51,416 bases of DNA from Patescibacteria group bacterium. GTDB taxonomy: Bacteria; Patescibacteriota; Patescibacteriia; PEXW01. The notes under the pieces were generated by a model. It searched no databases. It was not told where the DNA came from and was given only the letters and a program-made list of their open reading frames with translations. Every line of letters begins with the position of its first letter. Positions within the stretch are counted from its first letter, which is position 1. Location: the NCBI GenBank assembly GCA_038065015.1, contig JBBTRU010000001.1, positions 1-51,416 on the forward strand, given 5' to 3'. Shown one piece after another: positions 1 through 42,691 of this stretch. The translations under genes were made by a program, and so were the position numbers.

Positions 1-896
1 ATTGCGTAAATCATATCCGCGGGTACTTGGCTGTTCTGCAAACTCGTTATCAGGCTGCCGTACTGGGTGCGAACCCCGGTGGTACCATCCAGCCAGTCAC
101 GCGTGAGTGTAGCCGCACCAATGGCTGCGCCCCGCGCCCCATCTGAAACTTCACCTTCGGCAAAGACTTGCTCGATAGGTTTCACCGGCTTGAGCGTGAG
201 ACTGGTGAACTTGACCAACTTGGGGCTAATGGTAAGCAGCAACAGGTAGGCCGACAACGCCAGGATGACCCCGATAATAGCCGAGCTGATGGTCTCTTTT
301 GCTTCCTGAATTTTCCCGCGGTCGCCAGCGGCCAGCACCCAGCGCAGGCCGCCATACATTGTCATGACTGTTGCCAAAATGCCAATAGCACCCACCATGA
401 ACACGTAGAGCGCGGCAATGTACTCGCCCAGGGTATTGCCGGTAATAATAATGCTCTCGCCGGCAATAAACTTTGAGCCTGGCAACGTGAGCTGGGGTTT
501 AAACGCAATACCCACTGGAGCCGGTTGGGCCTGCTCGCTGCGGCAAGAGAGCGCCGTGCACGGCAATGTCGAAGGGCTGCTAAAGGCCGTGGTGCACGCT
601 CCCGAAGCCGTCGGTTGCTCACACATGCCGTTGAAGAGCACACAGCACTGCGTGGTTGCGGCAGCCACGGTCGGGCAAGTACAACTCGTCGCATAAACTC
701 CTGCATAACTGGCGCAAATTTTATCCTGCGTCCAGCCCCCGGGTGGCGGCTCGCCCGCCGGGGCTATGAGCTCCGCATCGGTAAAGCACTTGTTGGGTGT
801 GGTAACCGAAATGTTGCAGCAGCCCGCCTCTGCACGCAACGGCACCAGGATGCTTGTCAAAAACAGCAGACTGAGCAGGACAGATCGAATCTTCAC
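1..896 (-). CDS. Cys-rich secreted protein with VirB2/TrbC-like pilin membrane hairpin (start in window, 3' end beyond left edge)
   Basis: Absent from the ORF track because there is no stop in the window. My reverse-strand translation from GTG (896-894) gives VKIRSVLLSLLFLTSILVPLRAEA (signal peptide), then GCCNISVTTPNKC..TQCCVLFNGMCEQ..LPCTALSC. It continues GEYIAALYVFMVGAIGILATVMTMYGGLRWVLAAGDRGKIQEAKETISSAIIGVILALSAYLLLLTISPKLV. That stretch is colinear with GAYIGGLYKFFSGAIGIIATVMIFYGGIKWVAAAGNPSKIKEAKEAIFSALIAVVISLGSYMLLYVINPNLV of ORF 2805..4118. The frame stays open to position 1. The GTG overlaps the upstream stop (GTGA). Confidence 0.5.
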   Translation of the reverse strand, partial: MKIRSVLLSLLFLTSILVPLRAEAGCCNISVTTPNKCFTDAELIAPAGEPPPGGWTQDKICASYAGVYATSCTCPTVAAATTQCCVLFNGMCEQPTASGACTTAFSSPSTLPCTALSCRSEQAQPAPVGIAFKPQLTLPGSKFIAGESIIITGNTLGEYIAALYVFMVGAIGILATVMTMYGGLRWVLAAGDRGKIQEAKETISSAIIGVILALSAYLLLLTISPKLVKFTSLTLKPVKPIEQVFAEGEVSDGARGAAIGAATLTRDWLDGTTGVRTQYGSLITSLQNSQVPADMIYA

Positions 897-1507
897 AAGT
901 GCTTTTGGATTACCTGCCGAAGGTCAGCATCTTCGACTAACCCAGTAATCTGCTCGTCATTGACGAACATGGTCGGCACTTCTTGAATGCCAAGTCGTTT
1001 GCCTTCCGCAATAGCCGCATTCACGCGAGCCACGGCTTGGCCGCTCTCCAGGCACTGCTGTAGCTGCGCGGCATTGGTCCCGCTCTGCTGCGCCAGCACT
1101 TCTAGCGAGATGGTTGCAAGCTCGGTCTGGTGGTCGAAAAGCGTATCATGCATTTGCCAGAATTCGCCCTGGTCTTGGGCACAGCGGGCAATCTGCGAAG
1201 CGCGGTTGCTATTGGGGTGCAAGGGTAACGGAAAATCTTTAAACACCAAACGCACGTCATTTTGGTACGCACCAAGTGCAGACTTCAAAATTTGCACTTC
1301 GGCCTTGCAGAACTCGCACTCGAAATCGGTAAACACCACCAGCGTTACCTTACCGCGTTCGGCCCCAATTTTTGGGTCGGTGCTCTCCACCCGCGGCCGC
1401 ACCGCAGCAGTGCTGCCCGCGCCAAGCAGCGAGAGGCCATAGGTAACTATAATAAGCACGGCAAAACCGCCGATGATCGACAGAAGGACATTCTCGTGCC
1501 GCGTCAT
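893..1507 (-). CDS. DsbA-family thiol:disulfide oxidoreductase, membrane anchored
   Basis: 204 aa. N-terminal TM (LLSIIGGFAVLIIVTYGL). Thioredoxin-fold CxxC site in VVFTDFECEFCKAEV. Typical DsbA-like remainder (FKDFPLPLHPNS..ARCAQDQGEFWQMHD..VPTMFVN). Confidence 0.8.
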   Translation of the reverse strand: MTRHENVLLSIIGGFAVLIIVTYGLSLLGAGSTAAVRPRVESTDPKIGAERGKVTLVVFTDFECEFCKAEVQILKSALGAYQNDVRLVFKDFPLPLHPNSNRASQIARCAQDQGEFWQMHDTLFDHQTELATISLEVLAQQSGTNAAQLQQCLESGQAVARVNAAIAEGKRLGIQEVPTMFVNDEQITGLVEDADLRQVIQKHL

Positions 1508-1510
1508 AGG

Positions 1511-2770
1511 CTAGCGAATTTTCAGCGTCAGCACGCGGCCGGTGGGTGCGTCGGTGAAGTAGAGCGTCCGCTCGTCGGGCGAGAGGGTCATGTTGACGGC
1601 CGAGAAACGCCGGCTACCGTCGGTGCCCACCGGGTTGGCCAGCAAGGTTTTCGAACCTGTCGTCAGGTCCACCACATAGAAGCTATCGGGCGCGCTGGCC
1701 GCCTGGTCGCGATAAATACCGCTGCCCGAAGGGAGCGTACCGGCGTCGGGCACGGCACAGTAGAGTGTTGTACCGGCTTTGCTAAACGTGCATTTATCCG
1801 ACCACGTGGCCAAATCGAGCGGCCGGTTGTTAGCGCCTATGGTATCGCCGTTGGCGTCTACTATGTGCAAGCTAGGGTTGTAGCTAGAGCCGGCGGAGTA
1901 CGTGCTATACAGCATGCGCTGGCCGTCAGGCGACCACGACCCCTCGAACCCACGGCCGTCGGTGACCGCGGACTTAAAGTTCTCGCCGTTCTTGCCCACG
2001 AAGAATACTTCTTGCTTCGAGCCATCCAACCCCGGGCTGTACGTTGCCACCACCTGGTTGTTCGGCGACCACTGTACTGCAACCTTGCTGCCGTTCTCGC
2101 CCAACGGCTCGATAGGGGTAATATTCGTGCCGTCCGGGCTACTCACCACCAAAAACCGGTCGGCAACATTCGTGGCATTGTACTTAAACGCAATTTGCCC
2201 GCCGGCCGGGGCAAAGCTAAAGTCGTCGCCTTGCTTGGGCAGGGTGGCTTGCTTCTTGGTGTCGAAGTTGTAGTAGACCTTGGAATCGTCCGGGAAGCTG
2301 ACAATGACTTCGTTCTTCTGGCCCGACCACACCACTTCTTCGGCCTCGGGAAACTTGACTGTGGAGAGCGGAACGACATTGCCATTAGCGTCGAGCTTGT
2401 AGAACTGGCCGGTGGCTTTGTCGTAGTAACGCAGGTTGCCGCTGCTGTCGATGACGATGTCGCTGGCATTGCCAGAGACGAGCGTACCCACAGTCGTATC
2501 GCCGCCGCCCGCAACGCTGCTGGGCGCGGTGTTCGTCACCCCTGTGCCTCGATTGATATTCGAAGCATTTACGTTTGGCAGAACGCCATTAACATTCGTG
2601 GCTCGGTTTACATTGCCATTCAGGTCGGGTAGCGAGCCATTGAGATTGCCGTTCTGGTTGCCGTTAACGTTACCCGCTGGGCTGCTGCGGAAGAACGAAA
2701 TGTACAGCAAAAAGCCCAGGACAAGGACGCCGAGGACGAATGCAACAATGAGAATTATGCGACGGTTCAT
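1511..2770 (-). CDS. Membrane-anchored TolB-like beta-propeller (PD40/WD40-like repeats)
   Basis: 419 aa. N-terminal TM (IILIVAFVLGVLVLGFLLYISFF) followed by an Asn-rich linker (NVNGNQNGNLNG..NVNASNIN). Recurring PD40-type strands: VVSSPDGTNITPI, WSPNNQVVATYSP, WSPDGQRMLYSTYS, TLSPDERTLYFTD. Confidence 0.65.
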   Translation of the reverse strand: MNRRIILIVAFVLGVLVLGFLLYISFFRSSPAGNVNGNQNGNLNGSLPDLNGNVNRATNVNGVLPNVNASNINRGTGVTNTAPSSVAGGGDTTVGTLVSGNASDIVIDSSGNLRYYDKATGQFYKLDANGNVVPLSTVKFPEAEEVVWSGQKNEVIVSFPDDSKVYYNFDTKKQATLPKQGDDFSFAPAGGQIAFKYNATNVADRFLVVSSPDGTNITPIEPLGENGSKVAVQWSPNNQVVATYSPGLDGSKQEVFFVGKNGENFKSAVTDGRGFEGSWSPDGQRMLYSTYSAGSSYNPSLHIVDANGDTIGANNRPLDLATWSDKCTFSKAGTTLYCAVPDAGTLPSGSGIYRDQAASAPDSFYVVDLTTGSKTLLANPVGTDGSRRFSAVNMTLSPDERTLYFTDAPTGRVLTLKIR

Positions 2771-2804
2771 GCCTTATATTCTACACGATTTTCTATATCT
2801 CTGC

Positions 2805-4118
2805 CTATTCTGAAACGTGGCACGTCAGGTCTACAGCAGTTGCGGTTGTTGCGTTTGCTGTTGCTTTCATGCAGCAAATACCACGAACTTGTAAGGCCTG
2901 AAATAATCCTTTTTCTTTTCGCCACTCGCACTGGGAGGTAATAATTTTTCCAGTTGATGCAAGCGTCCCATCGTAAATTTCTTCAGCCGCGGATGCATCG
3001 TAACAACTGCCCGATACGCCGGTAAATTGAATGGATGGATTTACCTTTGTTCCAAAATTAATCGAACCAGTAGCATCTGGTTCTTGGGCCCGACGGCACG
3101 CCTCGCCGCCAACACGCACCGGAAAGTCCGATGGACAAGTGAGTACTGGCCAAGATTTGCAATAGTCAGTCACGGTCACATCGCCACATTCAGTTAAACC
3201 ACCAGCGGCATACCAGCTGCACTGGCGAGAACCCGGTTGGCTCAAAGGTGCACAGAGTACATCATGACGCCCCAAGCCGACATTTGCCAACGTATCATCC
3301 ACCTGCTCGCACGCCAAAATTTTATCCATGCAGCCGTATTTTGTGCCATTCACAGGATCAGAACGCAAGAATGTTTGCCCACTCAGTCCATCACGAAAAT
3401 CACTCCCAAGGCCGCAAGTCTTGGTCGTATCTGCACATACCGTTCCACGACACGTGGCCGCACCCGTGCTCCCAGCGGTGTACGGGTATTCTGTTCCGCA
3501 AAGCGGTTGCGTGTCACCACCAAGTTCTATTGGATACCCGCACGCTCCTGCGCCAGATCCGCAATCAGCATCTAACGTGCACTTCGTGCCGGCTTTCGCA
3601 CCGCTCAAGCACGTCCGCGATGTCGGACAGGTTGCAAAACGCTGTTCAATCGGTTTTACCACAGTCAATGACGGCGGACGAAGGTTAACCAGATTGGGGT
3701 TGATGACGTACAGCAACATGTACGACCCCAGCGAAATGACCACCGCGATGAGCGCGGAAAAAATTGCTTCTTTGGCCTCTTTAATTTTGCTGGGGTTGCC
3801 GGCCGCGGCCACCCACTTAATGCCCCCGTAAAAAATCATGACCGTGGCAATAATGCCAATGGCCCCGGAGAAAAATTTATACAGACCGCCAATGTACGCG
3901 CCCATGTCCTGAATGTAGTCGCGTGTTGCACCGGCACTATCGGTGCAGGTCGTGGTGACGCCGGGAATAGGCACGGCAACGCTAATCCACTTTTGCTCAA
4001 TATCGCTCAATACCACCCCGGTGGGGAGTTTGGAACACGTGAACGCAGCCTGGGTAGACCCGGCGGCGAAAAGGCCGATGAGGAGTATGAGTATGAAAAG
4101 TGTTCGTCGCATAGGCAT
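2805..4118 (-). CDS. VirB2/TrbC-like pilin-domain protein with ~270 aa Cys-rich C-terminal extension
   Basis: 437 aa. Signal peptide (LFILILLIGLFAAGSTQA). Two hydrophobic helices flank the conserved WVAAAGNPSKIKEAKEAI loop, the layout of T4SS pilins. About 22 Cys follow in the C-terminal part (ATCPTSRTCLSG..KCTLDADCGSGAGACGY..). Paralogue of the partial ORF 1..896. Confidence 0.55.
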   Translation of the reverse strand: MPMRRTLFILILLIGLFAAGSTQAAFTCSKLPTGVVLSDIEQKWISVAVPIPGVTTTCTDSAGATRDYIQDMGAYIGGLYKFFSGAIGIIATVMIFYGGIKWVAAAGNPSKIKEAKEAIFSALIAVVISLGSYMLLYVINPNLVNLRPPSLTVVKPIEQRFATCPTSRTCLSGAKAGTKCTLDADCGSGAGACGYPIELGGDTQPLCGTEYPYTAGSTGAATCRGTVCADTTKTCGLGSDFRDGLSGQTFLRSDPVNGTKYGCMDKILACEQVDDTLANVGLGRHDVLCAPLSQPGSRQCSWYAAGGLTECGDVTVTDYCKSWPVLTCPSDFPVRVGGEACRRAQEPDATGSINFGTKVNPSIQFTGVSGSCYDASAAEEIYDGTLASTGKIITSQCEWRKEKGLFQALQVRGICCMKATANATTATAVDLTCHVSE

Positions 4119-4849
4119 TAAAAAGTGCCGCTCGCCCCTGCCCCACCGGAACTACCGCCGGAAAAAAGGTCCCAAACGGCTTTTAACGCACCACTGGAAA
4201 GATCGAGAAATACCTGTGATTGGGTAATCGGATCCGCGGTAATAATCCACACAATGAACATGAGGAAGAACACAATAATTGCCAGGATGGTGAGAATGAC
4301 GAATGCAGCGGCCAGGTGAGAGATGAACACGCCAATGCCGACCAGACCCAGGCTGTACTTTGGAAAAATGACTATACCTTTCATGCGCAGCGGCACGATT
4401 GCTGCCATGATGCGCATAAAAAAAATGCTTAGGAAGAGCCACGGCGAAACAATTATTTCTAAAGCGAGCGCATTGCCAATGAGCTCGGACTGAAAACTGT
4501 TCAAAACCCGGGTGTAGGCGGCATTCGCTTTGGCCAGGGCCTGGCCCGAGGCTACTGCTTGAGCCGCCTGCTTACGCATTTCACCAATGTGCCGCAACCG
4601 GGCAATTGGACCCGAGTCATTCTGGCCAGCCGCTGCCTGGGCTGGGCCGGCATCCTGCGATAATGCTGGCGCCCCGGCGGTCTGGAGCGAAGAGTTGCTA
4701 TTGATGCTATCTAAACTCGTGCCCAAGCCCGAGGCTTGCCGCCGGATGTACTCCCCTGCGTCGGGCTGCTGGGCTTGCCGCTGCGCAAAAGTATCCGCGT
4801 AGAGTGCGCGCTGCTGCTGGGCTTCGAGGGTGGAGGCCGAATCGGCCAT
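4118..4849 (-). CDS. Polytopic membrane protein, function unknown (T4SS-like operon member)
   Basis: 243 aa. Hydrophilic Q/A-rich N-terminal ~130 aa, then 3-4 TM helices (IVSPWLFLSIFFMRIMAAIV, LGLVGIGVFISHLAAAFVILTILAIIVFFLMFIVWII). Gly/Ser tail. Its stop region overlaps the start of the next gene. Confidence 0.55.
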   Translation of the reverse strand: MADSASTLEAQQQRALYADTFAQRQAQQPDAGEYIRRQASGLGTSLDSINSNSSLQTAGAPALSQDAGPAQAAAGQNDSGPIARLRHIGEMRKQAAQAVASGQALAKANAAYTRVLNSFQSELIGNALALEIIVSPWLFLSIFFMRIMAAIVPLRMKGIVIFPKYSLGLVGIGVFISHLAAAFVILTILAIIVFFLMFIVWIITADPITQSQVFLDLSSGALKAVWDLFSGGSSGGAGASGTF

Positions 4850-4857
4850 AGGTGTGT

Positions 4858-5457: not shown

Positions 5458-5469
5458 AGGGCGGTGGGG

Positions 5470-7368
5470 TTAGGAGCCGGGTTGGCTGGTCTCGTTGAAT
5501 TCTTTCTTGGCGGCTTCAATTTCCAGCAGCTGGCGCGGGTCCGAGGTAATAATTTGATCTTCGGTGTACGAAGCTACAACTTTAATGGCCGCGTGCTTGG
5601 GCCCGGCAAAGAAAATGCCTTCACCCACCGCGGCTTCGAGCAGCAGGTATTTCTCCCCTTGCGTGAGCAAAAAGGTCTTGGCCACCATGTCCACCCCGGC
5701 CGGCGATTGCTTCATAAGCAGCTGCAAGGCGGAGTTCGTAACAATGGCCTGGCCGTACGGGCTGCGCAAAAAGTCGTTCACATCCTGCGTGATGGTGGTA
5801 ACCCCCAGGTAGTACTTGCGGCAGCGTTTGACCAGGGCGTAAATAAACCGCGCCGAGTCTTCGTTCTGCATCAGCCACCAGGCTTCGTCAATTACCAGGA
5901 TGCGCTTCTTGAGGCTGGAGCGCACCACATTCCAGATGTACGAAACAATGATAGAAATGCCAATGGGTCGCAGCTCGTCTTCCAGATCGCGGACCGAGAA
6001 CGTGACGAGCTGGTTGGTGAGCTCGATATTCGTGGGGCTATTGAAGAGCCCGGCAAACGTGCCTTCGGTGTACTTCTTCAGGCGCTCCACAATCCCTTCC
6101 GCCCCCACCATGCCGGCCAGTACCTCTTGGAAATCCGCCATCAGCGGCGGCTCCACTTTGGTCAAATCGCTCTCGGCGGTTATGTCTTTCTTGTTGTAGG
6201 TTTCAATAAGTCCGCGGTCGATAATGGAATCTTCTTCTGGAGAGAGCGCGCCCAGCATAAGGCGCAGCATGCTCTTAAGCGTGATAACCGCAGCGCGAAT
6301 AATGTCGGCCGGCTTCTCGGCGCCGCCCACGGGCCGCGGCAAGTCGAAGGGGTTTATCTTGGAATCCGAATTGAGCGAGATGTTAATGTACGTCCCGCCC
6401 ACGGCATCCGAGAGGTACTTGTACTCGCGTTCGGGGTCGATGACGATAACATCCGTACCCACCATGAGCGAGCGCAAGATTTCGAGCTTTACCGCGTAGC
6501 TCTTGCCCGCGCCCGACGTGGCGAAGACCACGAAGTTAGCATTCTGCAAGCTAAACCGGTCAAAGAGAATGAGCGAGTTGTTGTGCCGGTTAATGCCGTA
6601 GAGAATGCCGTTGTCCGAAGACACATCCGAAGAAATGAACGGGAAGCTGCTGGCGGCGGGCGAGGAATTCATGTTAAAGCTCACCTGGATTTCATCCTTG
6701 CCAATGGGCAGGGTGGAGTTGAACCCCTGCTCGGCCTGGTAGAGCACGCGCTTGCTAAACACCAGCTTCTGGCCGAACATGGCCTCGACCTTGTCCGAGA
6801 GCTTGTCCAGCTGGTCTTTGGCGTCGGCGTACAGGGTAACGTACAAGGCCACCTGGAAGAATTTCTCCGTCCCTTGCGTCAGGTTATCGCGCAGTTGCTC
6901 GATGTCTCGCAGCGCAGTTTCTCGAATGGGATCGCGCGGGGCGCCCTTCTCGGCATCAGAGAGAATTTGCGCTTCGAGTTGGCCGACCTTGTTGCGGAGT
7001 TGCTTGAGCACGACTTCGGACCCGACCGGGTAGAAGAACATGGCCACATCCAAAGGCACGTTGAGGTTGATGATGGGCGCAAACCAGCCCACGGCAATGT
7101 AGCGCGGGTAGGTAACCACGAACATGGTGCGCGCCAGCTTGCCGCCAATTTCCACTTCCTTGGGCGAAATTTTAAACGAGGCGGGCGCAATAAAGTCCCG
7201 CACCGAAACCACGCCGCGGCGGTAGATGCGCTCGGCTTCGAGCAGCTCGCGCTTGCGTTGCAGCTCCATAGCGGCCGCTTGCTGCTGCTCTTCTTGCGAG
7301 AGCATTTGCATGGGCAACGGGGTTTCCGCTGGTTGCGACTTTGGCTTACGTGATAAGTTGATTGCCAT
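5470..7368 (-). CDS. virB4: VirB4/TrsE/ConE-family T4SS ATPase (central and ATPase domains)
   Basis: 632 aa. Gram-positive-type VirB4 middle region (VRDFIAPASFKISPKEVEIGGKLARTMFVVTYPRYIAVGWFAPII). Walker A FATSGAGKSY. Walker B RILVIDEAWWLM. C-terminal YYLGVTTITQDVNDF motif. Confidence 0.85.
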   Translation of the reverse strand: MAINLSRKPKSQPAETPLPMQMLSQEEQQQAAAMELQRKRELLEAERIYRRGVVSVRDFIAPASFKISPKEVEIGGKLARTMFVVTYPRYIAVGWFAPIINLNVPLDVAMFFYPVGSEVVLKQLRNKVGQLEAQILSDAEKGAPRDPIRETALRDIEQLRDNLTQGTEKFFQVALYVTLYADAKDQLDKLSDKVEAMFGQKLVFSKRVLYQAEQGFNSTLPIGKDEIQVSFNMNSSPAASSFPFISSDVSSDNGILYGINRHNNSLILFDRFSLQNANFVVFATSGAGKSYAVKLEILRSLMVGTDVIVIDPEREYKYLSDAVGGTYINISLNSDSKINPFDLPRPVGGAEKPADIIRAAVITLKSMLRLMLGALSPEEDSIIDRGLIETYNKKDITAESDLTKVEPPLMADFQEVLAGMVGAEGIVERLKKYTEGTFAGLFNSPTNIELTNQLVTFSVRDLEDELRPIGISIIVSYIWNVVRSSLKKRILVIDEAWWLMQNEDSARFIYALVKRCRKYYLGVTTITQDVNDFLRSPYGQAIVTNSALQLLMKQSPAGVDMVAKTFLLTQGEKYLLLEAAVGEGIFFAGPKHAAIKVVASYTEDQIITSDPRQLLEIEAAKKEFNETSQPGS

Positions 7369-8048: not shown

Positions 8049-8051
8049 ATG

Positions 8052-8519: not shown

Positions 8520-8522
8520 GGC

Positions 8523-9899: not shown

Positions 9900-9907
9900 T
9901 TTTGTGA

Positions 9908-16600: not shown

Positions 16601-19600
16601 TGGTTGCACTGGCCGCTGGGGCTAAAACTGTCGCAGGTGGCTAGGCCGAGGGTAAGATTTTCTTTTTGGCCATTCGGCTTGGTGCTTTCGATGGTGGTAG
16701 TTGGCGTTAGCCACTGGCTGCACTGCCGGTCGCGCTGCACTTTTAGCAGCACGTTACTGTCGCACAGTTCGGGGTGGTCGGCGCAGGCGGCCGGGCTGCC
16801 CGTGGCATCCGGATCGGTCGGCGAACCGCCGATGGGGCTCTGGTCGACATCGTAGGCCAGTGTCGCATTCGAAAGATCGTTGAAGAGTCGGCAGCCTTGC
16901 TTGTCGCCCACCTGGCCGTTGCAGCTGGTGGAATCTACGCTCTGCCGAATAACCGACGTGTTGGTGGTGCTGTTGACTTGCAGGTTATCCAGCCAGTAGC
17001 CGGTGGTGCCGCCCACTGCGCCGGCAATGACATTGCAAGTGACGGCATTACCCGAGAAGAACCGACCGCTAACCCGGAGCGCTGCCGTGTCGCCAAAGCG
17101 GTCGGCCGGAATGCGAAGGGTGGTGCTAGTATTATCGTTAAACAAGCTGCCATCGGGCGAGCTCACCGGCGCATCGCCGCCCTGCGCATTTTTGCAGCTC
17201 ACCAGGCCCAGCCGAAAGTCCTCAGTCATTGCCGCGCTGCCCTTGGCCACGTCGGCACTTACCACGTAGTACGCGTTCGCATCCAGGCTCACGGTTTGCG
17301 TAAAGGTGCCCTGGTTGGTAATAATTGCGCGCACCGCTTGCGAGCCGTTGTTGGGGACGTAGGCCTGCAGGCTCGCACTGACGCCACTCCAGCCTTGGGG
17401 CAGGCTGCCGTTGGCAACTTCGAAATTTCCATTGGTTGTCAAACTGGCGCCGGTGCCAAGTGGGTCCAAGAAGTTACCGCAGCCGTTTTGCTCGGCGGGA
17501 CAGAGTCCGGCGTAGCCGCCATTAGGCACCGCGGGCGGGATGTTGTTGAGCTCGCGCACCGGGCAGGGCGTATCCGTGCCAGCAATGTACCAACCCGCGG
17601 ACTTGTTGCCCGAAACATCGCGGTAGCTGCAGACTTTGCTGCCCGGGTTGCGGAAATAGGCATTGCCGCCTTCGGACAAAGTGTACTCCTCGCAGAACAG
17701 CGCTCCGCGGCCGCACATAATAGTGGTATAGGTGTCGGGGTTATCCCGCAGGTACACGGTTTCCATATTTTGCAGCTTGCCGCTGGCATCGAAATTCTCT
17801 TTGCCCAAGGCGCGGCAACCCTTCTCCTCGGCGCGGCAGGCTTTGGTCGGGTCGTTTACCCAGAATTCCACTTCGTCGGCATCGGTGTCGACTTTGTCGC
17901 CGGGGTACGGGTTGCTGCTAAACGGCGTGCCATCAGAAAGGAACTTGGTAAGCGCAGTAACATCCCCAACGTTGACATTCCCATCGGCATTCGTATCACC
18001 CGCTTCTAACGGGAAGGGCTTTGGGCCGCCAGAGAACATGTAGGCCGCTAGGTAATTAATGTCGGCGCTATCCACCTTGCCGCTGCCGTCTACGTCGCCG
18101 CGCTGGCTGGGGAAGGTAACGCTGGATGCAAACGCATCGGTAGAATTTTTAGTGTTGATGAGTGCCTCGCACCCCACCACTTCGGACTTGCAGAGTTTGC
18201 TAAAGCCGGAGTACGTGTTTACCACGTTGCTGCGGTTGCGGTATTCCTGGCAGCCTTCGAAGCCACCACACGCCGTCTGGCTGGCTTTAATGCGGTAGGT
18301 GCTGTCCGAAATCTCGGTGAGCACAAGGTTATCTATGTAGAAATCTGCACCCAGTACCGACAGGACATTGGTGCCTGCGGTTGCGAAGCTAACGTTCGTG
18401 GGTCCCAGGGTGTAGGCGTTCCAATCTGTCCTCACCGACACGGTACCCATAGACACGGCACTGCCGTTTTGCAAACGGGCTTCCACATCTACATTGGCAC
18501 CGGTATTACTCTTGGCCCAGAACGCCAGGACGTAGCTCTTACCCTGCACCAAGGGCTGGTTGGTTGCCTGGGCATTGGTGGTGACGTGCAAAGAATGCCC
18601 GCCAAAGGTTATGCTCTCGGTGGTGGGGTTAGTTGGATTGCCACTGACCACCCACGGGCTGGACGAGCCGTTTTCAAATTCGCTCTTGAGAATTGTACGG
18701 GTGTTGCTGCCGGTGTTGCCCACATACTCGCGGCAACCCACAGCCGCGGCCGAGCAGGAAAGGGATTTTGTGGCATCGGCGTAGTACACGTTGCTATCCA
18801 CGGTGTTGCGGTAGGGGTGGCAGTCAGCAGTGCCTTCGATAAGGCGCGAGCGCAAGCGGTAGTACACATTGCTTGGATTGAGATCATCGTAGTACTGGCC
18901 GCAGTCTGGATCGGTGCCAAAGGTCGCCTGGCAGTCGATAACTGCTGTTTGCGGGCTGGTGTTGTCTACGCAGTTGAGCGGCAAGGTCTGCCCGGTGTCC
19001 AGGTTGGTACACGGGCCGCTCCCCGCATTACTCTGCTTCAGGCGGTACTGTTTTAACTGGTAGCCGGATTCATTGTCGCCCACCCAGGAATAGTAGTTTT
19101 TCAAGCCCGGGTCGTTGGGCTGCACGCAGAGTTGGAGCTTGGTAAACTGCGCTTTGCCTTCGCCGCCCTGCGCCACCTGGTCTAGGTTGGTATACGCCTC
19201 GCAACCCACATCGGTAGCAGTGCACTGCGTACCGGTTTTGGCAATGAAAGAGACGAGCGGCTGGCAGTCTGCAGGGTTATTACTGCAAGCTGATGCCAGA
19301 GTTGGATCGCACGATGTAAACTTCGTCGGGAGGTCGCTCTTGCAGTAAAACCCGGTGCGCGTGTCGTGCGCTTTCAGCACCCCGGTGGTGGGCTGCTCGC
19401 GGAACGTGGCGCAGCCGGCTTTGTCGGCCGGGCAGCTAATGCCGCCCTTGGCTGGCACGGCTGTACCGCCCGCCGTCGGGGTGAACAAATCGCAACCCAC
19501 ATCCGCGGCAGTACATTTGGAAATAAACTTGCTGCATGCCGGCGGGTCCGTTGCCACATTGCCCGTACAGGCCAGGCCGTCGGCCGGCCGCTTGAGGTGC

Positions 19601-22600
19601 ACCTGGTTTACCGCGCCATAGTCTTTGTAGTCCGTCAGTTGGCTGCCCTCTTCTACCTGCACGTTATCCAGTACGTACGTGCACGTGTCGGTTGGCTCGA
19701 AGATAAGCGAGAAATTGATTTCGGTTCGCGTGCTGTCCACGGTGGTGGTGTAGCTGTACCGCTGCCAGTCCGGGGTAATGGTTAGGGCCGGAGCCGCGCC
19801 AAGCCAGCCGCCCGCCCCCAGCTGCGTCAACGGCGAGCAAGACGCGCCTTCGGATTTTGCGTAGAAAGAGGTGGTAAACGTTCGGCCGCCAATGGGCGTG
19901 CCTGTGTAGATGGTGGTGGTAAACTTCTGGGCGCTCGGTGTGCAGTCGGGCAAATATTGCAACCGCGCGGCCTGGCTGCCGCCGAACGCCAGGGACGAGG
20001 CAAAAGTCTGCGCCCCGCAGGTGTGCGTGCCATTCCCCGTTAGCCAGCCGCTAAAGTTAGCATTACCGGCCGGGTTGACCACCGTGGACTGCTCGAAGCC
20101 GCCATTGCCCGCCAGGTTGGTACCGGTAGTCATGCGCAAAAACTGCGTGCAGCCCTCGGCATTTGCGTCGCACTCCTGGGCATCGCGGTCAAAGCGCTTG
20201 GTCGCCGTCGGCAGCGTAGCATCCGTACACGACCACTTGCCGGCCGTGTAGTCGTAAGTAGTGCAGTACTGCTGGCAACCGGCATTATCCGCACCGCAAC
20301 TGTTGGGCTGTAGTGTATTCTGCAGGTAGCTCACGCTCTGGCCGCCACTGTCGGTGTAGGTCTGGCAGGATGCGTACACGTTGTTGCAGCTCTGGCCGTT
20401 GAAACGCCAAGTGTCTTTTTCTTCGGTGCAGGTGCCAAACTGCTTGCACGTGCCGTCGTCGTTTTCCAATACGCAGGTGCGTTCGTCCACGCAGGCTTCG
20501 CGGCGCTGGATTTGCTCTTGCCGGGGTGTAATGAAGGCGCAGGTGGCGAGCGCAACAGCACCATCGTCCCGCTTCTTCACGCACAGTCCCTGGCCAGGCG
20601 GGTCGGTATCATATTGCGCAATACATGGTGTGCTTGGGTCCAGTGGATCGGTCGTGCATTTACATTCCTTGCCCACATTCGCATCGGAGTCGCTATTGCA
20701 ATACCGCTTAGCATAATCAATATTCTTCCGGCCGCCTTCATCGCCGTCCTCATCCACAAATTCCTGCGAGATAATATCCGAAGAAAAACCCGTGCGTAAG
20801 CAAATATTCTCTGGCGATTTCAGCACCCAGGTGGGATCAATGAGGCGGTAGTAGGGCGAGTCGGGGTTGTCGAACTGCTGCACGATTGCGCCCAGGTTTA
20901 CGTTTTGCCGCTCGAAATCTCTTATGTACTGGGCGGCCAGATCCCAACCCACCGGGAGTACTCGATACTTGCGCAAAATCTTTAAGCTACGGAACGGGTA
21001 GCCGCTGCGGAAGTCTGGCTCGCGGCCGTTTGCATCGAAGCCGAACACTTTTTGGTCCGAGAGCAACTTGCGGTCCAGGGCTTGCTGCACAGTCAGGTGC
21101 TCTTCCACGGCCTGGCGAAAAGACGAATCAATCACGCAATTATTTGCAGACACCAAACCTAATGTTGTTGCGGAAACATTGGTCACATCCACTGGGCAAG
21201 CACTAAGGTCATTGAGAATATCTATGCCACCCCCCGTACCAAGGTTTACTTGGCCCAAGCTGGCAAATCGCTCTTTGGCCGCCGCCACACCGCCCGAGGA
21301 ACTGCTAATGATTCCGCCATTACCAAACTGTAAACTTTTGGCCTTCGGGTCTACTATGCCTTTGCTGAAAATGCGCTCAATGAGCTTGTTCGTGAGCGTG
21401 TTAGTAAAAATGCCAAACGCATCCGCAATGGGCGATCCGGTTTGCGTGGTTTCACTCTTGGAGGCATTCTGCGTGCTCAAGCCTTCTTCAGTGGTTTTCT
21501 TGGTGAGGAATGATGGAGTTTTAATTGCCCCGCTAATGAGCGCCTTAATTGGCAACGCTCCGCCAAAGAGTTGCGTATCTTTCTCTTTTTTTTCTGCTTC
21601 GACTTTTTTTTCTTGGGCTTCGTCGTAGAGGGTCAAAAACTGCCCAAGCGGATTTTCGGTGGGTTTAAAAATTTTTGGGAGGTCGCCTTTTTCAAAAGCT
21701 TGCTGCAGCGATGCGCCGGTCGCTTGTCTGGAGCCAAGGGGCGTGCCAACCGAAATGCTGCTCTGGGCAAGACCGCTCTGTATATTGTCGCCAATTGCAC
21801 TAAGTGTGCAAGAGGTGGTACGCCGAGTTTTGGCGCTGGTACACTTGTTGATACATAGTTTTAGGTTCGCGTCGGCTTGAGAACCCATTTGCACTACATC
21901 TTTAATTTTATTCCTGCATTCATTCATGGTTTTTATACATAAAAAACCATCACCGCATGCACTGCAATAGGACCAAATCGTCGGCGTTTTTTCCCGTGCT
22001 TCATTCCCACCGTAATTCATTGGTGGATCCCAGGCTGCGTCAGGATGTTCTCGACATGACGCTGCTCCTGTACTTGGGTCGGTGTACCACTCACAGCGTC
22101 CGAGATTCTGCGTCCAGGCATCCGCATCACATTCTGATTTTAAAGAAGTTGCGGCACACCGTGCGCCTTCTCTTGTAGTTATATCGCTAATGAGTGCCTC
22201 AAAAGCCGACAGCTCTGCACCTAGATTCCTTAAATTGTCAGACTTTCCCCCCTCGACAAGTTCTAACTGATCACTATAATTTTTTTGGCAATTTTCCTGG
22301 CAGAAGTTCGGATCCAGGTTAACGCGCAAGGCAATATCAATGTTCAGCTTGGCAAAGCCCGGGTCGCACATGCTCACGCCAAACTGCTCTTTAGAGAGCG
22401 TATCCAAAAAGTCACCGGCCGCGGCATTGCCCAGGTTTTTAAAGTAATTCGGATCCGTAATAAAAAGTGGGCCTTGCCCTTTTGCGCCCGAGGCTATCCA
22501 CGTTGCGGTATCTTCAGCAATCTTGCCTAAAAACACTCGCATAGCGTTTTTAAACGCAGCATCGCCTGCTTTCTTGTATAAATTCTTGGCTAGTTCTGCA

Positions 22601-22836
22601 GTTTTATCAGCAATATAACGCCCCGCATCAACAATATTCCTTACAATACGCTCCACCAGAGAGCCCGGATCACTAACGACGAATTGCGCGTTCGCCGGCA
22701 CTGGTCGAATAAGCGCGGCGGCAAGACCAACTACGAGTAGCACGCTCGCTACACCTGTTACAAAGGCACGTTGAGGCGACGTTGCCTTACGTTGGCGATG
22801 AAATATTGAGAAAAATTTTCTGCGCTTAGGAGCCAT
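13699..22836 (-). CDS. Giant Cys-rich surface protein: N-terminal anchor, four CBM4_9-like modules, internal dockerin
   Basis: The ORF is open 13699..22908 (3069 codons). The ATG at 22836 (MAPKRRKFFSIF) is preferred because it cuts the overlap with the upstream gene to 11 nt. One TM/signal anchor (VASVLLVVGLAAALIRPVPANA). Module signatures and the dockerin are detailed in the findings. The stop overlaps the next ATG (TAATG). Confidence 0.8.
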   Translation of the reverse strand: MAPKRRKFFSIFHRQRKATSPQRAFVTGVASVLLVVGLAAALIRPVPANAQFVVSDPGSLVERIVRNIVDAGRYIADKTAELAKNLYKKAGDAAFKNAMRVFLGKIAEDTATWIASGAKGQGPLFITDPNYFKNLGNAAAGDFLDTLSKEQFGVSMCDPGFAKLNIDIALRVNLDPNFCQENCQKNYSDQLELVEGGKSDNLRNLGAELSAFEALISDITTREGARCAATSLKSECDADAWTQNLGRCEWYTDPSTGAASCREHPDAAWDPPMNYGGNEAREKTPTIWSYCSACGDGFLCIKTMNECRNKIKDVVQMGSQADANLKLCINKCTSAKTRRTTSCTLSAIGDNIQSGLAQSSISVGTPLGSRQATGASLQQAFEKGDLPKIFKPTENPLGQFLTLYDEAQEKKVEAEKKEKDTQLFGGALPIKALISGAIKTPSFLTKKTTEEGLSTQNASKSETTQTGSPIADAFGIFTNTLTNKLIERIFSKGIVDPKAKSLQFGNGGIISSSSGGVAAAKERFASLGQVNLGTGGGIDILNDLSACPVDVTNVSATTLGLVSANNCVIDSSFRQAVEEHLTVQQALDRKLLSDQKVFGFDANGREPDFRSGYPFRSLKILRKYRVLPVGWDLAAQYIRDFERQNVNLGAIVQQFDNPDSPYYRLIDPTWVLKSPENICLRTGFSSDIISQEFVDEDGDEGGRKNIDYAKRYCNSDSDANVGKECKCTTDPLDPSTPCIAQYDTDPPGQGLCVKKRDDGAVALATCAFITPRQEQIQRREACVDERTCVLENDDGTCKQFGTCTEEKDTWRFNGQSCNNVYASCQTYTDSGGQSVSYLQNTLQPNSCGADNAGCQQYCTTYDYTAGKWSCTDATLPTATKRFDRDAQECDANAEGCTQFLRMTTGTNLAGNGGFEQSTVVNPAGNANFSGWLTGNGTHTCGAQTFASSLAFGGSQAARLQYLPDCTPSAQKFTTTIYTGTPIGGRTFTTSFYAKSEGASCSPLTQLGAGGWLGAAPALTITPDWQRYSYTTTVDSTRTEINFSLIFEPTDTCTYVLDNVQVEEGSQLTDYKDYGAVNQVHLKRPADGLACTGNVATDPPACSKFISKCTAADVGCDLFTPTAGGTAVPAKGGISCPADKAGCATFREQPTTGVLKAHDTRTGFYCKSDLPTKFTSCDPTLASACSNNPADCQPLVSFIAKTGTQCTATDVGCEAYTNLDQVAQGGEGKAQFTKLQLCVQPNDPGLKNYYSWVGDNESGYQLKQYRLKQSNAGSGPCTNLDTGQTLPLNCVDNTSPQTAVIDCQATFGTDPDCGQYYDDLNPSNVYYRLRSRLIEGTADCHPYRNTVDSNVYYADATKSLSCSAAAVGCREYVGNTGSNTRTILKSEFENGSSSPWVVSGNPTNPTTESITFGGHSLHVTTNAQATNQPLVQGKSYVLAFWAKSNTGANVDVEARLQNGSAVSMGTVSVRTDWNAYTLGPTNVSFATAGTNVLSVLGADFYIDNLVLTEISDSTYRIKASQTACGGFEGCQEYRNRSNVVNTYSGFSKLCKSEVVGCEALINTKNSTDAFASSVTFPSQRGDVDGSGKVDSADINYLAAYMFSGGPKPFPLEAGDTNADGNVNVGDVTALTKFLSDGTPFSSNPYPGDKVDTDADEVEFWVNDPTKACRAEEKGCRALGKENFDASGKLQNMETVYLRDNPDTYTTIMCGRGALFCEEYTLSEGGNAYFRNPGSKVCSYRDVSGNKSAGWYIAGTDTPCPVRELNNIPPAVPNGGYAGLCPAEQNGCGNFLDPLGTGASLTTNGNFEVANGSLPQGWSGVSASLQAYVPNNGSQAVRAIITNQGTFTQTVSLDANAYYVVSADVAKGSAAMTEDFRLGLVSCKNAQGGDAPVSSPDGSLFNDNTSTTLRIPADRFGDTAALRVSGRFFSGNAVTCNVIAGAVGGTTGYWLDNLQVNSTTNTSVIRQSVDSTSCNGQVGDKQGCRLFNDLSNATLAYDVDQSPIGGSPTDPDATGSPAACADHPELCDSNVLLKVQRDRQCSQWLTPTTTIESTKPNGQKENLTLGLATCDSFSPSGQCNHFVDEMRCSNNAKQTCVVDADCGAGVCKPMNFTGNTAAYSREDLRNKSGLVLAGLQWAGNQILNGKYLFGVAPQVGNDGVAVADDVLNGTFNKSKILSESGWTLQADSTTDGSVLALTTSQTLAVGNTTAPVTVNPFLQATPSIGGSRPTVIRTTTAAMANRLTPDRTYVLSFNIRYVQSPDRLLTDTKISAGIASSATAGIISTNAWYGNVKPTTQWQRFVIGPLTLSANATQAQGNTAFDNNGNSTHQPFDQSTGMVYFLVPSNNRTAIAIDDVSVLPVLNVDDPLPATTSGITGQLSNDAYIARSCRAYPNSTALSCGYQDDTGKRFDGWQGYCLEPDPRNPTGCLSWYPIDLLAGERNIFGRVEAAGYSGQNPLYMCLQSAGRGANISMRTVEETEDEGATWSYTVNGYSLNQVETIQAVVSAADGDWHPGNGTVLTMNRTSGQYYCDADNCPASSGTTPAWFVAGCGGQGSASDRKCNMPFTWSGMSPAFNASGCDDWDGSDDNTNLWGLRVQWPADPNTRTATINFGMCDASGGGGHYKLDIRFIVRDICQVVAQVVQPGGTNASWSNRTSSQSYPLPDLRYLASQDTAPYGAIVPPELHLEDPGQWDTRDNTVEPGKQGVYVMSATQDVRASSVYGCAAGGNCSRRICSITGSACNTLAEIATCTAAKGFCIGAGTAKVCQTGSKVSQACTTDAQCGTAGEKCDYGSTQNVGGGAFVTNKATSTGIAYLKLLFANVYGAWQLDEATQTYVDITATDSRITGWRDNYLTMPACGGVYDRAKANVVSSNQVALTNAYCGIPPLVESVKVGNRESGVTIIGAGELIQLQFNSIVDKEQLPMKNIAIDWDGDSNSDEIIRWNFAPRSNAADPHSFTHVYLFGQGTGQCFDKGTGKYGDKFSPDFNQAVAGKEYCIARPRVQIQDNWDWCNGGRCVNPNAPYSYSFPSTQSSYWEPLPDDIVIIR
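17929..18099 (-). other. Dockerin (type I-like, two Ca-binding segments) embedded at aa ~1604-1660 of the giant protein
   Basis: GDVDGSGKVDSADINYLAAYMFSGGPKPFPLEAGDTNADGNVNVGDVTALTKFLSDG. This is a duplicated D-x-[DN]-x-[DS]-G-x-V-[DN]-x-x-D loop-helix pattern. Confidence 0.75.
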
Positions 22837-23626
22837 TCGTGTTCGTATTTTCTTTGAGCGCTTCTTGGAGGGCTTGGTCGTAGACGGCGCGCAGGGTGGC
22901 GTCGTCATAGCTGTTCAAGGTGGTTTCGTCCACGCCGCCAGACTTGAGGAACTCGCGAATTTCCGGAATCGTCAGGTTTTTGAGCTGGTCTACCGTTAGT
23001 GAGCTATTGGTTGCGGTTGCCGTATTTGCATTGGCAGTAGTATTCGTATTCGTGGCTTCGCTGGCAACGACATCCTGATAGTTTTTGAGTAAGGTTGCAT
23101 CGTCAATGGCGTCTACTTCGGCTTGGGAAACCCCGGCAGCCAAGAGTGCTTCGCGCAATTGCTGTGGGGTTACCGTGCTCGTGCCGGCTACCGGGGCAGT
23201 ATTCGTAGTTTCGTTGCCAGCCGCGGCATTGGTGTTGCTTATAACCCCGCAGGTCTGGCCGGCTGGGCAGTTGGGGTTGGTGTTGCTGTCTACTTCTTGT
23301 TTGTCGGTCTGGCCGTCGCTATCCGAATCCGCAATGTAGGGGCTGGTATTGTAGCTGTAGAGCTCGTCGTAGTCGGTTAAACCGTCTTTATCGGTATCTT
23401 TAGCCTGCAAGGCCAACAACTCGGTATTCTGCGGCTGCGTATCCCGCTGCAATTGCGCCCGACCCGCAACAGTGAAAGGCTGCTTGAGGTTGCTACGGAG
23501 TTGAAACCCACCCAGGACCAAAGCTGAGATCCCTAGCCCAAAAATCAGCCACGCTAACCGCTGCTTGCGCTGTTTTTGCTCCGGATCACGTGGTTGCACG
23601 TCCCCGTTCGCTGGTTCGTTTTCCAT
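22826..23626 (-). CDS. Membrane-anchored protein with thrombospondin type 3 (Ca-binding) repeats
   Basis: 266 aa. TM (LAWLIFGLGISALVLGGF). TSP3-like DTDKDGLTDYDE and DSDSDGQTDKQEVDSNTNP. T/N-rich low complexity follows. First gene of the operon. Confidence 0.6.
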   Translation of the reverse strand: MENEPANGDVQPRDPEQKQRKQRLAWLIFGLGISALVLGGFQLRSNLKQPFTVAGRAQLQRDTQPQNTELLALQAKDTDKDGLTDYDELYSYNTSPYIADSDSDGQTDKQEVDSNTNPNCPAGQTCGVISNTNAAAGNETTNTAPVAGTSTVTPQQLREALLAAGVSQAEVDAIDDATLLKNYQDVVASEATNTNTTANANTATATNSSLTVDQLKNLTIPEIREFLKSGGVDETTLNSYDDATLRAVYDQALQEALKENTNTNGS

Positions 23627-40158: not shown

Positions 40159-40160
40159 GG

Positions 40161-41534: not shown

Positions 41535-41564
41535 ACAGCCTAGTATAGCGCGTTTTTTCAGGGT

Positions 41565-42680: not shown

Positions 42681-42691
42681 AGGTGTATGGG

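Follow-up and report, generated by a model that had tools for sequence, protein, structure and literature searches.

What is the role of a chromosomal type IV secretion system (T4SS) that has neither a relaxase nor a coupling protein and shares its gene cluster with a giant cysteine-rich surface protein? The question is raised by a stretch of 51,416 nucleotides (nt) from a Patescibacteria group bacterium (assembly GCA_038065015.1, contig JBBTRU010000001.1, positions 1 to 51,416), which was analyzed as a whole and is called the window in the following. A previous reading of the bare sequence, here the original prediction, had described 13 genes at positions 1-23626 as a T4SS-like operon and had proposed an organelle for contact, adhesion or translocation. 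Judged from its sequence, the locus is a chromosomal, vertically inherited T4SS of the Kerfeldbacteria/GTDB-ABY1 type of Patescibacteria, and we consider it probable that it works as a host-contact translocation/attachment apparatus of an epibiont. A role in contact or adhesion rather than in conjugation would agree with the inference drawn in two published studies (PMC10633639, PMC12102498).

The identification of the channel starts with VirB4. Against the NCBIfam family conju_CD1110 the protein gave 5.9e-106 and 355.5 bits (cut-off 325), its translation shows a Walker A (GAGKS) and a Walker B motif (VIDEAW), and it is 28-34% identical to the nearest plasmid-encoded VirB4 proteins, which belong to plasmids of Firmicutes and Actinobacteria. 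The gene for a separate TrsD-like N-terminal domain lies directly in front, and its stop overlaps the virB4 start at 7368. The extended VirB6-like protein itself had no match in Pfam and none to PDB sequences; among the N-domains of its orthologues 9/44 matched Pfam TrbL/VirB6 (best 3e-6), and in the distant locus L006 a gene of 589 amino acids (aa) in the corresponding position carries TrbL_3, with one 200-aa gene between the giant gene and it. The hydrophilic tail showed a weak TolA-like match. At the level of the family the VirB6 assignment is supported.

For the VirB8-like protein, sequence comparison gave a Pfam VirB8 value of 0.068, no match to PDB sequences and, among 59 orthologues, two matches to VirB8 and one to TcpC. 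An AlphaFold2 (AF2) model based on a 28-sequence alignment reached a predicted local distance difference test score (pLDDT) of 78.5, with the C-terminal domain above 90. Foldseek returned CagV, a VirB8 homologue, as the top match of this model (E 8e-5, TM-score 0.65-0.68), and further matches were VirB8 of A. tumefaciens, PrgL, TrwG of R388 and TraH of pIP501; other NTF2-like folds interleave with these VirB8 matches at similar scores. The predicted fold, together with the bitopic topology and the position right after virB4, argues for a VirB8-like identity. The original prediction had named VirB4, the VirB4 N-domain, PrgI, a VirB6-like protein and a VirB8 candidate as parts of a T4SS, and NCBIfam and Pfam matches, the TrbL matches of orthologues and the predicted structure back this; in particular, the homology of VirB4, PrgI and VirB6 held up in searches with hidden Markov models (HMMs) and among orthologues. 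It had also listed VirB2, B3, B4, B6 and B8 as the minimal channel set of Gram-positive systems, from which VirB2 has to be removed: a 2025 review, which calls the Patescibacteria T4SSs the 'most exciting newcomers' of the superfamily, reports VirB2 to be otherwise absent from Gram-positive T4SSs (PMC12857230).

Relatives of the locus were collected by a VirB4 scan of the GTDB species genomes, which yielded 316 matching stretches. The loci compared are the best 80 of these 316, with VirB4 proteins 69-95% identical to that of the window, and the denominators 56, 46 and 42 used below are the numbers of loci with enough flanking sequence for the gene in question. The genes of PrgI, of TrsD and of a soluble Pro-rich protein (ProR) were found on the same strand in 56/56 loci each, that of the VirB8-like protein in 46/46 and that of the VirB6-like protein in 48/56. 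The 458-aa ProR has no relative in Pfam, NCBIfam or the PDB (matches to FtsK_gamma at 0.0057 and to NF-YC at 0.14 are spurious) and is a universally conserved core member in the ABY1 loci examined. The surrounding genes are more variable: a pilin gene was present in 30/46 loci, the propeller gene likewise in 30/46 (53 of 80 after HMM iteration) and an in-cluster DsbA gene on the same strand in 25/46 (35 loci after HMM iteration). A 243-aa protein with three transmembrane (TM) helices is lineage-restricted (11/80 loci after HMM iteration).

The informatively titled VirB4 records came almost all from Patescibacteria, namely Candidatus Kerfeldbacteria, Buchananbacteria, Falkowbacteria and Veblenbacteria, while many other titles were uninformative or unrelated labels. 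The Patescibacteria origin suggested in the original prediction is therefore borne out by the VirB4 relatives. NCBI taxonomy places Kerfeldbacteria in the Patescibacteria/Parcubacteria group, and we take all four lineages to belong to GTDB class ABY1. In distant relatives (loci L003-L006, L089 and P0305) the corresponding gene order is kept, including rsmA, the gene of a major facilitator superfamily (MFS) transporter and leuS. The locus would be chromosomal and vertically inherited because it has housekeeping flanks, shares its synteny with distant relatives, shows the VirB4 identities given above and has no GC anomaly, relaxase, coupling protein or integrase. The GC content is 0.50-0.59 within the cluster and does not differ from that of the flanks.

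The search for mobility genes covered the window and about 11 kb past position 1, which were read on the parent ENA contig Hain_H51_01um_R2_74 (92,740 bp; Hainich groundwater, 0.1-um fraction). Among the ORFs (open reading frames) of the 51.4 kb window and of this left extension there was no relaxase, no type IV coupling protein (T4CP) of the VirD4/TcpA type and no VirB11, and the other large P-loop proteins were only ComM/YifB, RadA, RecG and ClpB. An integrase, a tRNA and a repeat boundary were equally absent from these 51 kb plus 11 kb, and the composition is not island-like. The cluster is flanked by rsmA, MFS, Sua5 and leuS on one side and by radA, recG and clpB on the other. The chromosomal location and the lack of VirD4, relaxase, VirB11 and integrase, both claimed originally, have thus been confirmed, the former by housekeeping genes in conserved order on both sides and the latter also beyond the left edge. 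Since relaxase and coupling protein are missing, the machine is presumably not conjugative.

An ordinary conjugative element, i.e. the remnant of a plasmid or of an integrative conjugative element (ICE) with its relaxase and T4CP module located beyond the sequenced DNA, was weighed against this. The CD1110-family VirB4, TrsD, PrgI and the Mbov_0395-type pilin have their origin in the conjugation systems of monoderms, and coupling-protein genes are often distal (PMC12102498). With relaxase, T4CP, integrase, tRNA and repeat boundary missing from both stretches, with no compositional island, with housekeeping genes on both sides in an order conserved across hundreds of species, and with a nearby relaxase known for only 15/2,474 Patescibacteria virB4 genes (PMC12102498), we regard such an origin as extremely improbable.

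All 13 ORFs of positions 1-23626 are located on the minus strand and follow each other in the order TSP3-repeat protein, giant protein, VirB6-like protein, ProR, PrgI, TrsD, VirB4, VirB8-like protein, 243-aa protein, pilin-domain protein 2, propeller, DsbA and pilin-like 1. Each has a proper start and stop, with the exception of the last (1-896), which is cut by the window edge. ORF map and translations agreed with the original prediction in gene order, overlaps and all coordinates. In transcription order the 12 junctions, which were recomputed, measure -11, -1, +8, +18, +3, -1, +12, +8, -1, +34, +3 and -4 nt. The first is the overlap of the TSP3 gene stop (22826) with the giant gene start (22836), the overlaps of 1 nt are at 13699, 7368 and 4118, and the last one is the GTGA at 893-896; the +18 gap upstream of the PrgI gene shrinks to +3 if PrgI starts with the TTG at 8519. 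Co-directionality is weak evidence for an operon because nearly all genes of the window are on the minus strand, the gene of an M23/LysM peptidase being the only annotated exception in the 51 kb.

The cluster continues past position 1. Read on the parent contig, the truncated ORF encodes 448 aa and its stop is overlapped by radA (4 nt), so that the unit reaches radA and comprises at least 15 genes. Of the originally proposed single unit of about 23.6 kb with gaps of 0-34 nt and overlaps, the close spacing stood (junctions from -11 to +34 nt), but the end point did not. At the other end, a gap of 418 nt between rsmA and the first cluster gene houses a promoter-like site and a palindrome. The former is the best minus-strand match to a promoter (10/12) and the latter (ACCCAGCACCACTTTCGCCAG / CTGGCGAAAGTGGTGCTGGGT) occurs as a single copy in the window, with 0 expected by chance; it could be an operator, an element of the repetitive extragenic palindromic (REP) type or the stem of an rsmA terminator without T-tract. 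No structured RNA (Rfam) or tRNA was detected in the 418-nt leader or elsewhere in the window. Promoter and terminator scans of the window gave totals equal to the shuffle expectation. With its tight junctions and the promoter-like site, and with scans not above the shuffle expectation, one transcript for the whole cluster is plausible.

The giant protein is the most conspicuous component next to the T4SS core. Pfam detected CBM_4_9 (3.6e-8) and Dockerin_1 (1.9e-7), the dockerin lying at about residues 1575-1635, and a profile of the giant family matched type I dockerins (1e-11) and modules of the CBM4/22 type (5e-7) in the PDB, with nothing for the first ~800 residues. The modules resembling carbohydrate-binding modules (CBMs), the dockerin and the TSP3 repeats had been recognized correctly before, the TSP3 match lying under its cut-off. 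In L003-L006, L089 and the P0305 locus a gene similar in size to the TSP3 gene likewise precedes the giant gene, and the L006 copy has a faint TSP3_bac match. The N-terminal hydrophobic helix of the giant is followed by PANA|Q, the A-Q of which is invariant among 18 homologues. This signal/anchor helix points to Sec export or anchoring, and the giant is no obvious T4SS substrate. The same holds for its neighbors: the TSP3 protein, the pilins, the propeller and DsbA also carry N-terminal signal/anchor helices, which imply Sec export and make it unlikely that the adhesin-like proteins are cargo of the T4SS, as had been proposed.

With 112 cysteines (3.7%) the giant is exceptionally Cys-rich, and 67 of them are kept at >=70% across 35 homologues whose overall identity goes down to 24%. 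The motif C-x4-6-C-x1-3-[FYWL] occurs 16 times between residues 782 and 2788, compared with 4.3 times in shuffles. Examples are CDANAEGCTQF, CTAADVGCDLF, CPADKAGCATF and CSAAAVGCREY, and most are invariant among homologues. The motif looks like a disulfide-stapled hairpin or a linker module between domains; we know of no described family with it. Conservation peaks in the N-terminal region (100-700) and in the middle and is lowest in the C-terminal third. A similarity of the N-terminus to VirB5/TrbJ, for which a DUF4141 match (E 0.0066) had been the lead, was dropped after Foldseek returned nothing with E <1 and the PDB comparison nothing for this region.

An exhaustive HMMER search with residues 45-700 defined a large family: at 50% clustering it has 1,081 representatives, and E is <=1e-30 for 417. 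Most members are 1,500-3,600 aa long and have the conserved stretch near the N-terminus. Even around the 150th-ranked member, as around others, the order is leuS - MFS - rsmA - small gene - giant - ... - PrgI - TrsD, and the linkage of giant and T4SS persists down to about 36% identity. The synteny search suggested with the original prediction found an ORF of this family directly upstream of the VirB6-like gene in 33/42 testable loci (>=900 nt available), in addition to the in-cluster DsbA genes counted above; in two more loci an unrecognized Cys-rich ORF of >1,000 aa occupies the position of the giant gene.

Two genes of the cluster encode proteins with a T4SS_pilin domain (PF18895) above the Pfam cut-off (42.6 and 32 bits). 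The fragment of pilin-like 1 in the window gave 6e-11, and pilin 2 gave 1.3e-7 and matched in addition the NCBIfam Mbov_0395 pilin-like family (2e-6). The two pilin cores are 56% identical over 91 aa, and the appended Cys-rich domains are unrelated. In the full-length pilin-like 1 of locus L001 an SLT domain (PF01464, 9.4e-18) covers residues 286-398, mostly beyond the window. A predicted VirB1-type cell-wall hydrolase is hence encoded in the cluster, as a pilin-SLT fusion, and the reported lack of a VirB1-type lytic transglycosylase was an artefact of the window edge. Pfam matches confirmed the two pilin-like proteins, DsbA and the propeller, those of the propeller being weak (a TIGR TolB propeller match of 2e-4 is far under the cut-off). 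Cysteines are concentrated in the exported proteins, with 112 in the giant, 24 in pilin 2 and 12 in the fragment of pilin 1, in comparison with 0-1 in the cytoplasmic and channel proteins. The Cys-rich extracellular domains of giant and pilins provide a simple rationale for an operon-encoded DsbA.

Features of the T4SS locus and of the cohesin-dockerin genes in the window
Feature	Position	Strand	Evidence and properties
Pilin-SLT fusion (pilin-like 1), 448 aa, first 298 codons in window	1..896	-	Signal peptide, Cys-rich N-domain, VirB2-like hairpin, SLT
DsbA-type thiol-disulfide oxidoreductase, 204 aa, CEFC motif	893..1507	-	Pfam Thioredoxin_4 1.6e-28, DSBA 1e-16; N-terminal TM helix
PD40/TolB-like beta-propeller, 419 aa, membrane-anchored	1511..2770	-	Pfam PD40 1.3e-4, just above cut-off; N-terminal TM helix
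Pilin-domain protein 2, 437 aa	2805..4118	-	Signal peptide, VirB2-like hairpin, ~300-aa Cys-rich (24 Cys) C-terminal domain
243-aa protein	4118..4849	-	Hydrophilic N-half, 3 C-terminal TM helices; no Pfam/NCBIfam match
VirB8-like bitopic protein, 199 aa	4858..5457	-	N-terminal TM helix, Asn/Thr-rich linker, NTF2-like C-terminal domain
VirB4 ATPase, MPF-FATA/CD1110 type, 632 aa	5470..7368	-	NCBIfam conju_CD1110; Pfam P-loop_TraG, AAA_10, DUF87
TrsD-like separate VirB4 N-terminal domain, 226 aa	7368..8048	-	NCBIfam VirB4_plasma 2.5e-10 (positions 109-233), TrsD 2e-4; PF26593 TraC-like
PrgI/VirB3-like small membrane protein, 150 aa	8052..8504	-	Pfam PrgI 8e-6, 26.7 bits vs cut-off 27; hydrophobic hairpin
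Soluble protein (ProR), 458 aa	8523..9899	-	Conserved N- and C-terminal helical domains, Pro-rich linker, no TM helices
Extended VirB6-like protein, 1,263 aa	9908..13699	-	~8 TM helices in first ~340 aa, then ~900-aa hydrophilic Ala/Lys/Glu/Gln-rich domain
Giant surface protein, 3,045 aa	13699..22836	-	Signal-like helix, conserved N-terminal domain, CBM4/9/22-like modules, type I dockerin, variable C-terminal half
TSP3-repeat (Ca-binding) protein, 266 aa, first gene of unit	22826..23626	-	Pfam TSP3_bac 1e-4, under curated cut-off; one N-terminal TM helix
Candidate promoter, TTGACA-17 nt-TG-extended TACACT	23687..23715	-	~60 nt upstream of first ATG of unit; best minus-strand match, 10/12
Perfect palindrome, 42 bp (21+21 nt, 100% complementary)	23739..23780	.	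Between rsmA and operon; 24 nt upstream of -35-like hexamer
Three membrane-anchored cohesin proteins and one Big_13/dockerin protein	38410..43549	-	Pfam Cohesin 3.9e-7, 7.6e-8, 1.3e-4; Dockerin_1 7.4e-8

A T4SS of this general kind has been described before. In the saccharibacterium Southlakia epibionticum, transposon sequencing showed that growth as an epibiont requires the T4SS gene cluster (Wang et al. 2023, Cell, PMC10633639); this system (SEML1_0006-0019) resembles the T4SSs that Gram-positive bacteria use for conjugation and has predicted pilins but no recognizable coupling and relaxase proteins (PMC10633639). A survey of the phylum assigned VirB4 to a Patescibacteria clade allied to MPF-FATA, with TrsD, PrgI, VirB6 and VirB2-like pilins clustering alongside and with VirB8 matches almost all in ABY1 (Quinonero-Coronel et al. 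2025, PMC12102498). A chromosomal Patescibacteria T4SS with pilins, without relaxase and T4CP, and with linkage to radA and recG in ABY1, is already published (PMC10633639, PMC12102498), and the statement of the original prediction that the gene combination is not a textbook layout overstates its novelty. For the giant protein, DsbA, the propeller and the TSP3 protein, by comparison, no mention was found in the accessible parts of text and supplements of PMC12102498 or in further literature. The survey detected no adhesins of the PrgB type (PMC12102498), and our literature search found no described giant Cys-rich T4SS-linked protein from the candidate phyla radiation (CPR). The large FhaB-type proteins of Patescibacterium danicum have other domains (FhaB, DUF2341) and, according to their authors, no full-length homologues.

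How might these parts work together? In the host-contact model the split VirB4 (TrsD plus VirB4) would power an envelope channel, which may be built from the PrgI/VirB3 protein, the extended VirB6 and the VirB8-like protein. The SLT muramidase fused to a pilin domain would open the wall and take the role of VirB1. A Sec-exported surface module consisting of the TSP3 anchor protein, the giant, the PD40 propeller and DsbA would surround this core. The conserved N-domain of the giant may tie it to VirB6 and the machine or to the membrane; its CBM, dockerin and variable C-terminal parts may bind the surface of the host cell, with the variable C-terminus recognizing host surface glycans. The membrane-anchored DsbA would form the disulfides of the giant and of the pilin appendages. 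The complete apparatus would bind to a host cell and pass macromolecules through the zone of contact, either in the direction of effector export or in that of import of host material.

Several points weigh against this model. Single-unit transcription, assembly, substrate and direction of transport are all features that we infer. A distal T4CP could be encoded elsewhere in the genome; many distal VirD4 homologues have been found in Patescibacteria (PMC12102498). The pilin-domain proteins are fusions of 437-448 aa, which makes a true pilus uncertain. For the N-domain of the giant neither a usable model nor a structural match was obtained, the AF2 model of residues 45-700 being poor (pLDDT 55, about 110 residues confident), and the putative link between giant and T4SS comes from synteny only. 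The block of TSP3-like, giant, VirB6-like and ProR-like genes in L004, L005 and L089 (15072-24922, 15867-25862 and 20874-30770, respectively) is not followed by PrgI-VirB4 but by a phosphoenolpyruvate (PEP)-utilizer and other genes, and the two halves of the cluster must therefore be separable. Finally, the tight coupling to radA is at least as compatible with a DNA-related function as with effector export, if not more so.

The last point leads to an import machine for DNA or nucleic acids, working in the direction of ComB or Ced and feeding host or environmental DNA to RadA, RecG and ComM for recombination or nucleotide salvage. Apart from the 4-nt overlap of radA with the last T4SS gene, there is a radA downstream in the same orientation in 26/46 loci and a recG nearby in 41/46, and ComM/YifB is encoded 12 kb upstream. 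In the phylum survey ksgA is a common neighbor and ABY1 T4SS loci commonly include comF, recG and radA, for which functional coordination was suggested (PMC12102498). A perspective article that calls the role of the Patescibacteria T4SS 'completely unknown' lists effector delivery and nucleotide or DNA uptake as proposals (PNAS, PMC11665869), and uptake would need neither relaxase nor T4CP. VirB4 also matches the DNA-import ATPases CedB (34.7 bits, cut-off 700) and CedD (17.8 bits, cut-off 600), but so far under the cut-offs that only the shared P-loop is reflected. Moreover, radA and recG are housekeeping repair genes whose adjacency may be neutral conserved synteny, a DNA-binding or ComEA/ComEC-like component is absent from the cluster, and in Southlakia the competence gene comEC is dispensable whereas the T4SS is essential (PMC11665869, PMC12857230), so the pathways are separate there. 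On balance we consider DNA import as the main function unlikely, although it is the strongest competitor of the host-contact model.

The separable halves raise a different possibility, namely two independent systems, in which the TSP3 protein, the giant and DsbA, perhaps with the VirB6-like protein and ProR, form a Sec-dependent adhesin system that lies beside the T4SS core merely by inherited gene order. The Sec-type signals on the giant and the other surface proteins are consistent with it, as are the three loci with the giant block and without a following PrgI-VirB4, the absence of an in-cluster DsbA gene from the loci other than the 25/46, and the general tendency of small genomes to keep gene order, which here includes the unrelated rsmA, MFS and leuS. 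However, giant and VirB6-like gene overlap by 1 nt, and the VirB6-like gene accompanies the giant even where VirB4 does not follow, which ties at least one bona fide channel component of a T4SS to the giant. The linkage is kept across a family of >1,000 clusters and down to the low identity mentioned above, and an oxidase is needed, too, by the Cys-rich pilin-domain proteins, themselves parts of the T4SS. Uncoupled systems are in our view quite unlikely, and the host-contact apparatus remains the preferred reading.

A more far-reaching version of the host-contact reading, which we regard as speculative and rather doubtful, would make the giant family a dedicated and so far unrecognized structural partner of the Patescibacteria T4SS: the VirB6-coupled, cohesin-held and DsbA-oxidized host-recognition end of an importer for host nucleic acids or nutrients. 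Such an importer would explain the coupling to RadA and RecG. At 50% identity the family behind it comprises at least 1,081 clusters, with a shared N-terminal domain of ~310 aa, disulfide-stapled CBM/dockerin modules and a hypervariable C-terminus. If true, this would provide a concrete and testable model for host choice and feeding by ABY1-type CPR bacteria.

The picture of the core machine is unchanged by our analysis, and the giant, DsbA and the pilin-SLT fusion appear to be under-described. In ABY1 the soluble Pro-rich protein and the VirB8-like one almost invariably accompany the core, and fusion of the hydrolase with a pilin domain occurs. Throughout a very large family, the VirB6 gene is linked with that of a giant CBM/dockerin protein rich in disulfides, frequently along with a DsbA of its own; this giant is a candidate host-recognition component where the survey detected no adhesin (PMC12102498). 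If its linkage reflects inherited gene order only, the locus is one more ordinary case of a system already known. What the Patescibacteria T4SS does is acknowledged to be an open question, and in the one cultivated model the system is essential (PMC11665869). The linkage of the giant offers a handle on what an essential machine contacts and moves, with the giant N-domain and the VirB6-like protein, dockerin and cohesin, and DsbA and the Cys-rich domains as candidate protein pairs.

Cohesins are encoded in the same window. Three paralogues (646, 457 and 371 aa, at 38.4-42.7 kb) combine a cohesin domain with a signal peptide and a TM anchor at the C-terminus, and a 285-aa protein with Big_13 and a type I dockerin follows. 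In at least five relatives, homologues of the cohesin proteins and of the giant occur together on a contig. These proteins are putative partners that could hold the dockerin of the giant at the cell surface. As a separate observation, the four genes resemble a cohesin-dockerin surface system of non-cellulosomal type, here in a member of the CPR. Next to them, 43557-51380 of the minus strand encodes a membrane protein similar to WxL-interacting proteins (peptidoglycan-binding, weak match), followed by Thr/Gly/Asn-rich proteins of 383 and 1,681 aa. The latter two have no Pfam match and have in common a C-terminal domain of 166 aa (42% identity) that ends with TYI(A/V)TGTF. This region may be a cell-surface complex cluster of the csc/WxL type.

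The rest of the window contains rsmA, the MFS transporter, Sua5, DUF559, leuS, the M23/LysM peptidase, a two-component system, ComM/YifB, LspA and DksA in addition to the cohesin/dockerin and large surface proteins. Past the left edge radA is followed by a small convergent ORF, then recG, another three small ORFs and the gene of a ClpB-type chaperone. RadA has the canonical architecture of Zn-ribbon, RecA-like and Lon_C domains. In L001, radA is located at 17816-19165 (+) and recG at 19811-21874 (-); ComM/YifB lies at 35661-37343 (-) of the window. With ComM/YifB, RadA and RecG, three recombination- or transformation-associated helicase/ATPase genes are found within ~40 kb around the T4SS.

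A few further observations concern individual genes of the window and its relatives. LeuS, encoded at 28372-31029 (-), contains low-complexity insertions, and the LeuS proteins of relatives have extra domains: NUDIX in L003 (2376-5768) and L005 (563-3556), a Ham1p-like domain in L089 (3087-6263) and an alpha/beta-hydrolase in L004 (1-1771). Variable domain insertion is unusual for an essential enzyme. Between the genes of the Sua5 region and leuS, 27888-28367 (-) encodes a protein with a DUF559/restriction endonuclease-like domain (E 2e-35), which is absent from the corresponding position in L003, L004 and L089 and may be a small mobile or selfish insertion. In L004 and L005 IS200/Y1 transposase genes adjoin the break after the giant block, and the giant gene of L005 is apparently split into ORFs of 1,953 aa and 1,444 aa.

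Compared with known systems, the locus shares with H. pylori ComB and archaeal Ced a VirB4-type ATPase and a VirB2/3/6/8-like channel without relaxase and T4CP, here with radA, recG and comM nearby. In contrast to them, there is no membership at the sequence level (CedB/CedD 18-35 bits against cut-offs of 600-700), and the giant, DsbA and the propeller have no counterpart there. Among the MPF-FATA systems (C. difficile CTn2/CD1110, pGO1 Trs, pCF10 Prg/Pcf, Mycoplasma ICE Mbov_0395/0397) similarities are the VirB4 that passes the CD1110 cut-off, TrsD, PrgI, an NTF2-fold VirB8-like protein (cf. PrgL and TraH), a VirB1-type hydrolase and a pilin core matching the pilin-like family of the Mycoplasma ICE. 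The differences are that the locus has no relaxase/T4CP context and no mobile element, that VirB2-like pilin domains are present, and that a giant Sec-exported protein takes the place of the PrgB-type LPXTG adhesin.

The extended VirB6 proteins known, for example, from Rickettsiales (PMC12857230) likewise combine a polytopic N-terminal VirB6/TrbL domain with a large hydrophilic C-proximal domain; the ~900-aa Ala/Lys/Glu/Gln-rich tail found here is unrelated to theirs, and orthologue lengths range from ~590 to 2,056 aa. The giant proteins of Omnitrophota (West-Roberts et al. 2023, 10.1101/2023.11.21.568195) provide a conceptual parallel, with no sequence relationship claimed. There, too, an ultra-small and probably host-dependent bacterium has large membrane-anchored extracellular proteins with Ca-binding modules of the dockerin, TSP3 and CBM-like kinds beside a secretion-like locus, and attachment was proposed; the phylum is a different one, the proteins are tenfold larger (>=30,000 aa) and the neighbor resembles a type II secretion system. 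In the T4SS of Saccharibacteria six short pilins are encoded in an array, unlike the two large pilin-domain fusions described here, one of which carries an SLT domain. With the T4SSs of the Patescibacteria clade in general the locus has in common the chromosomal location, an MPF-FATA-related VirB4, a separate TrsD, PrgI/VirB3, VirB6, PF18895 pilins, a cell-wall hydrolase and the lack of relaxase and T4CP nearby. With the loci of class ABY1 in particular it shares VirB8 homologues and radA, recG and ksgA/rsmA as neighbors (PMC12102498).

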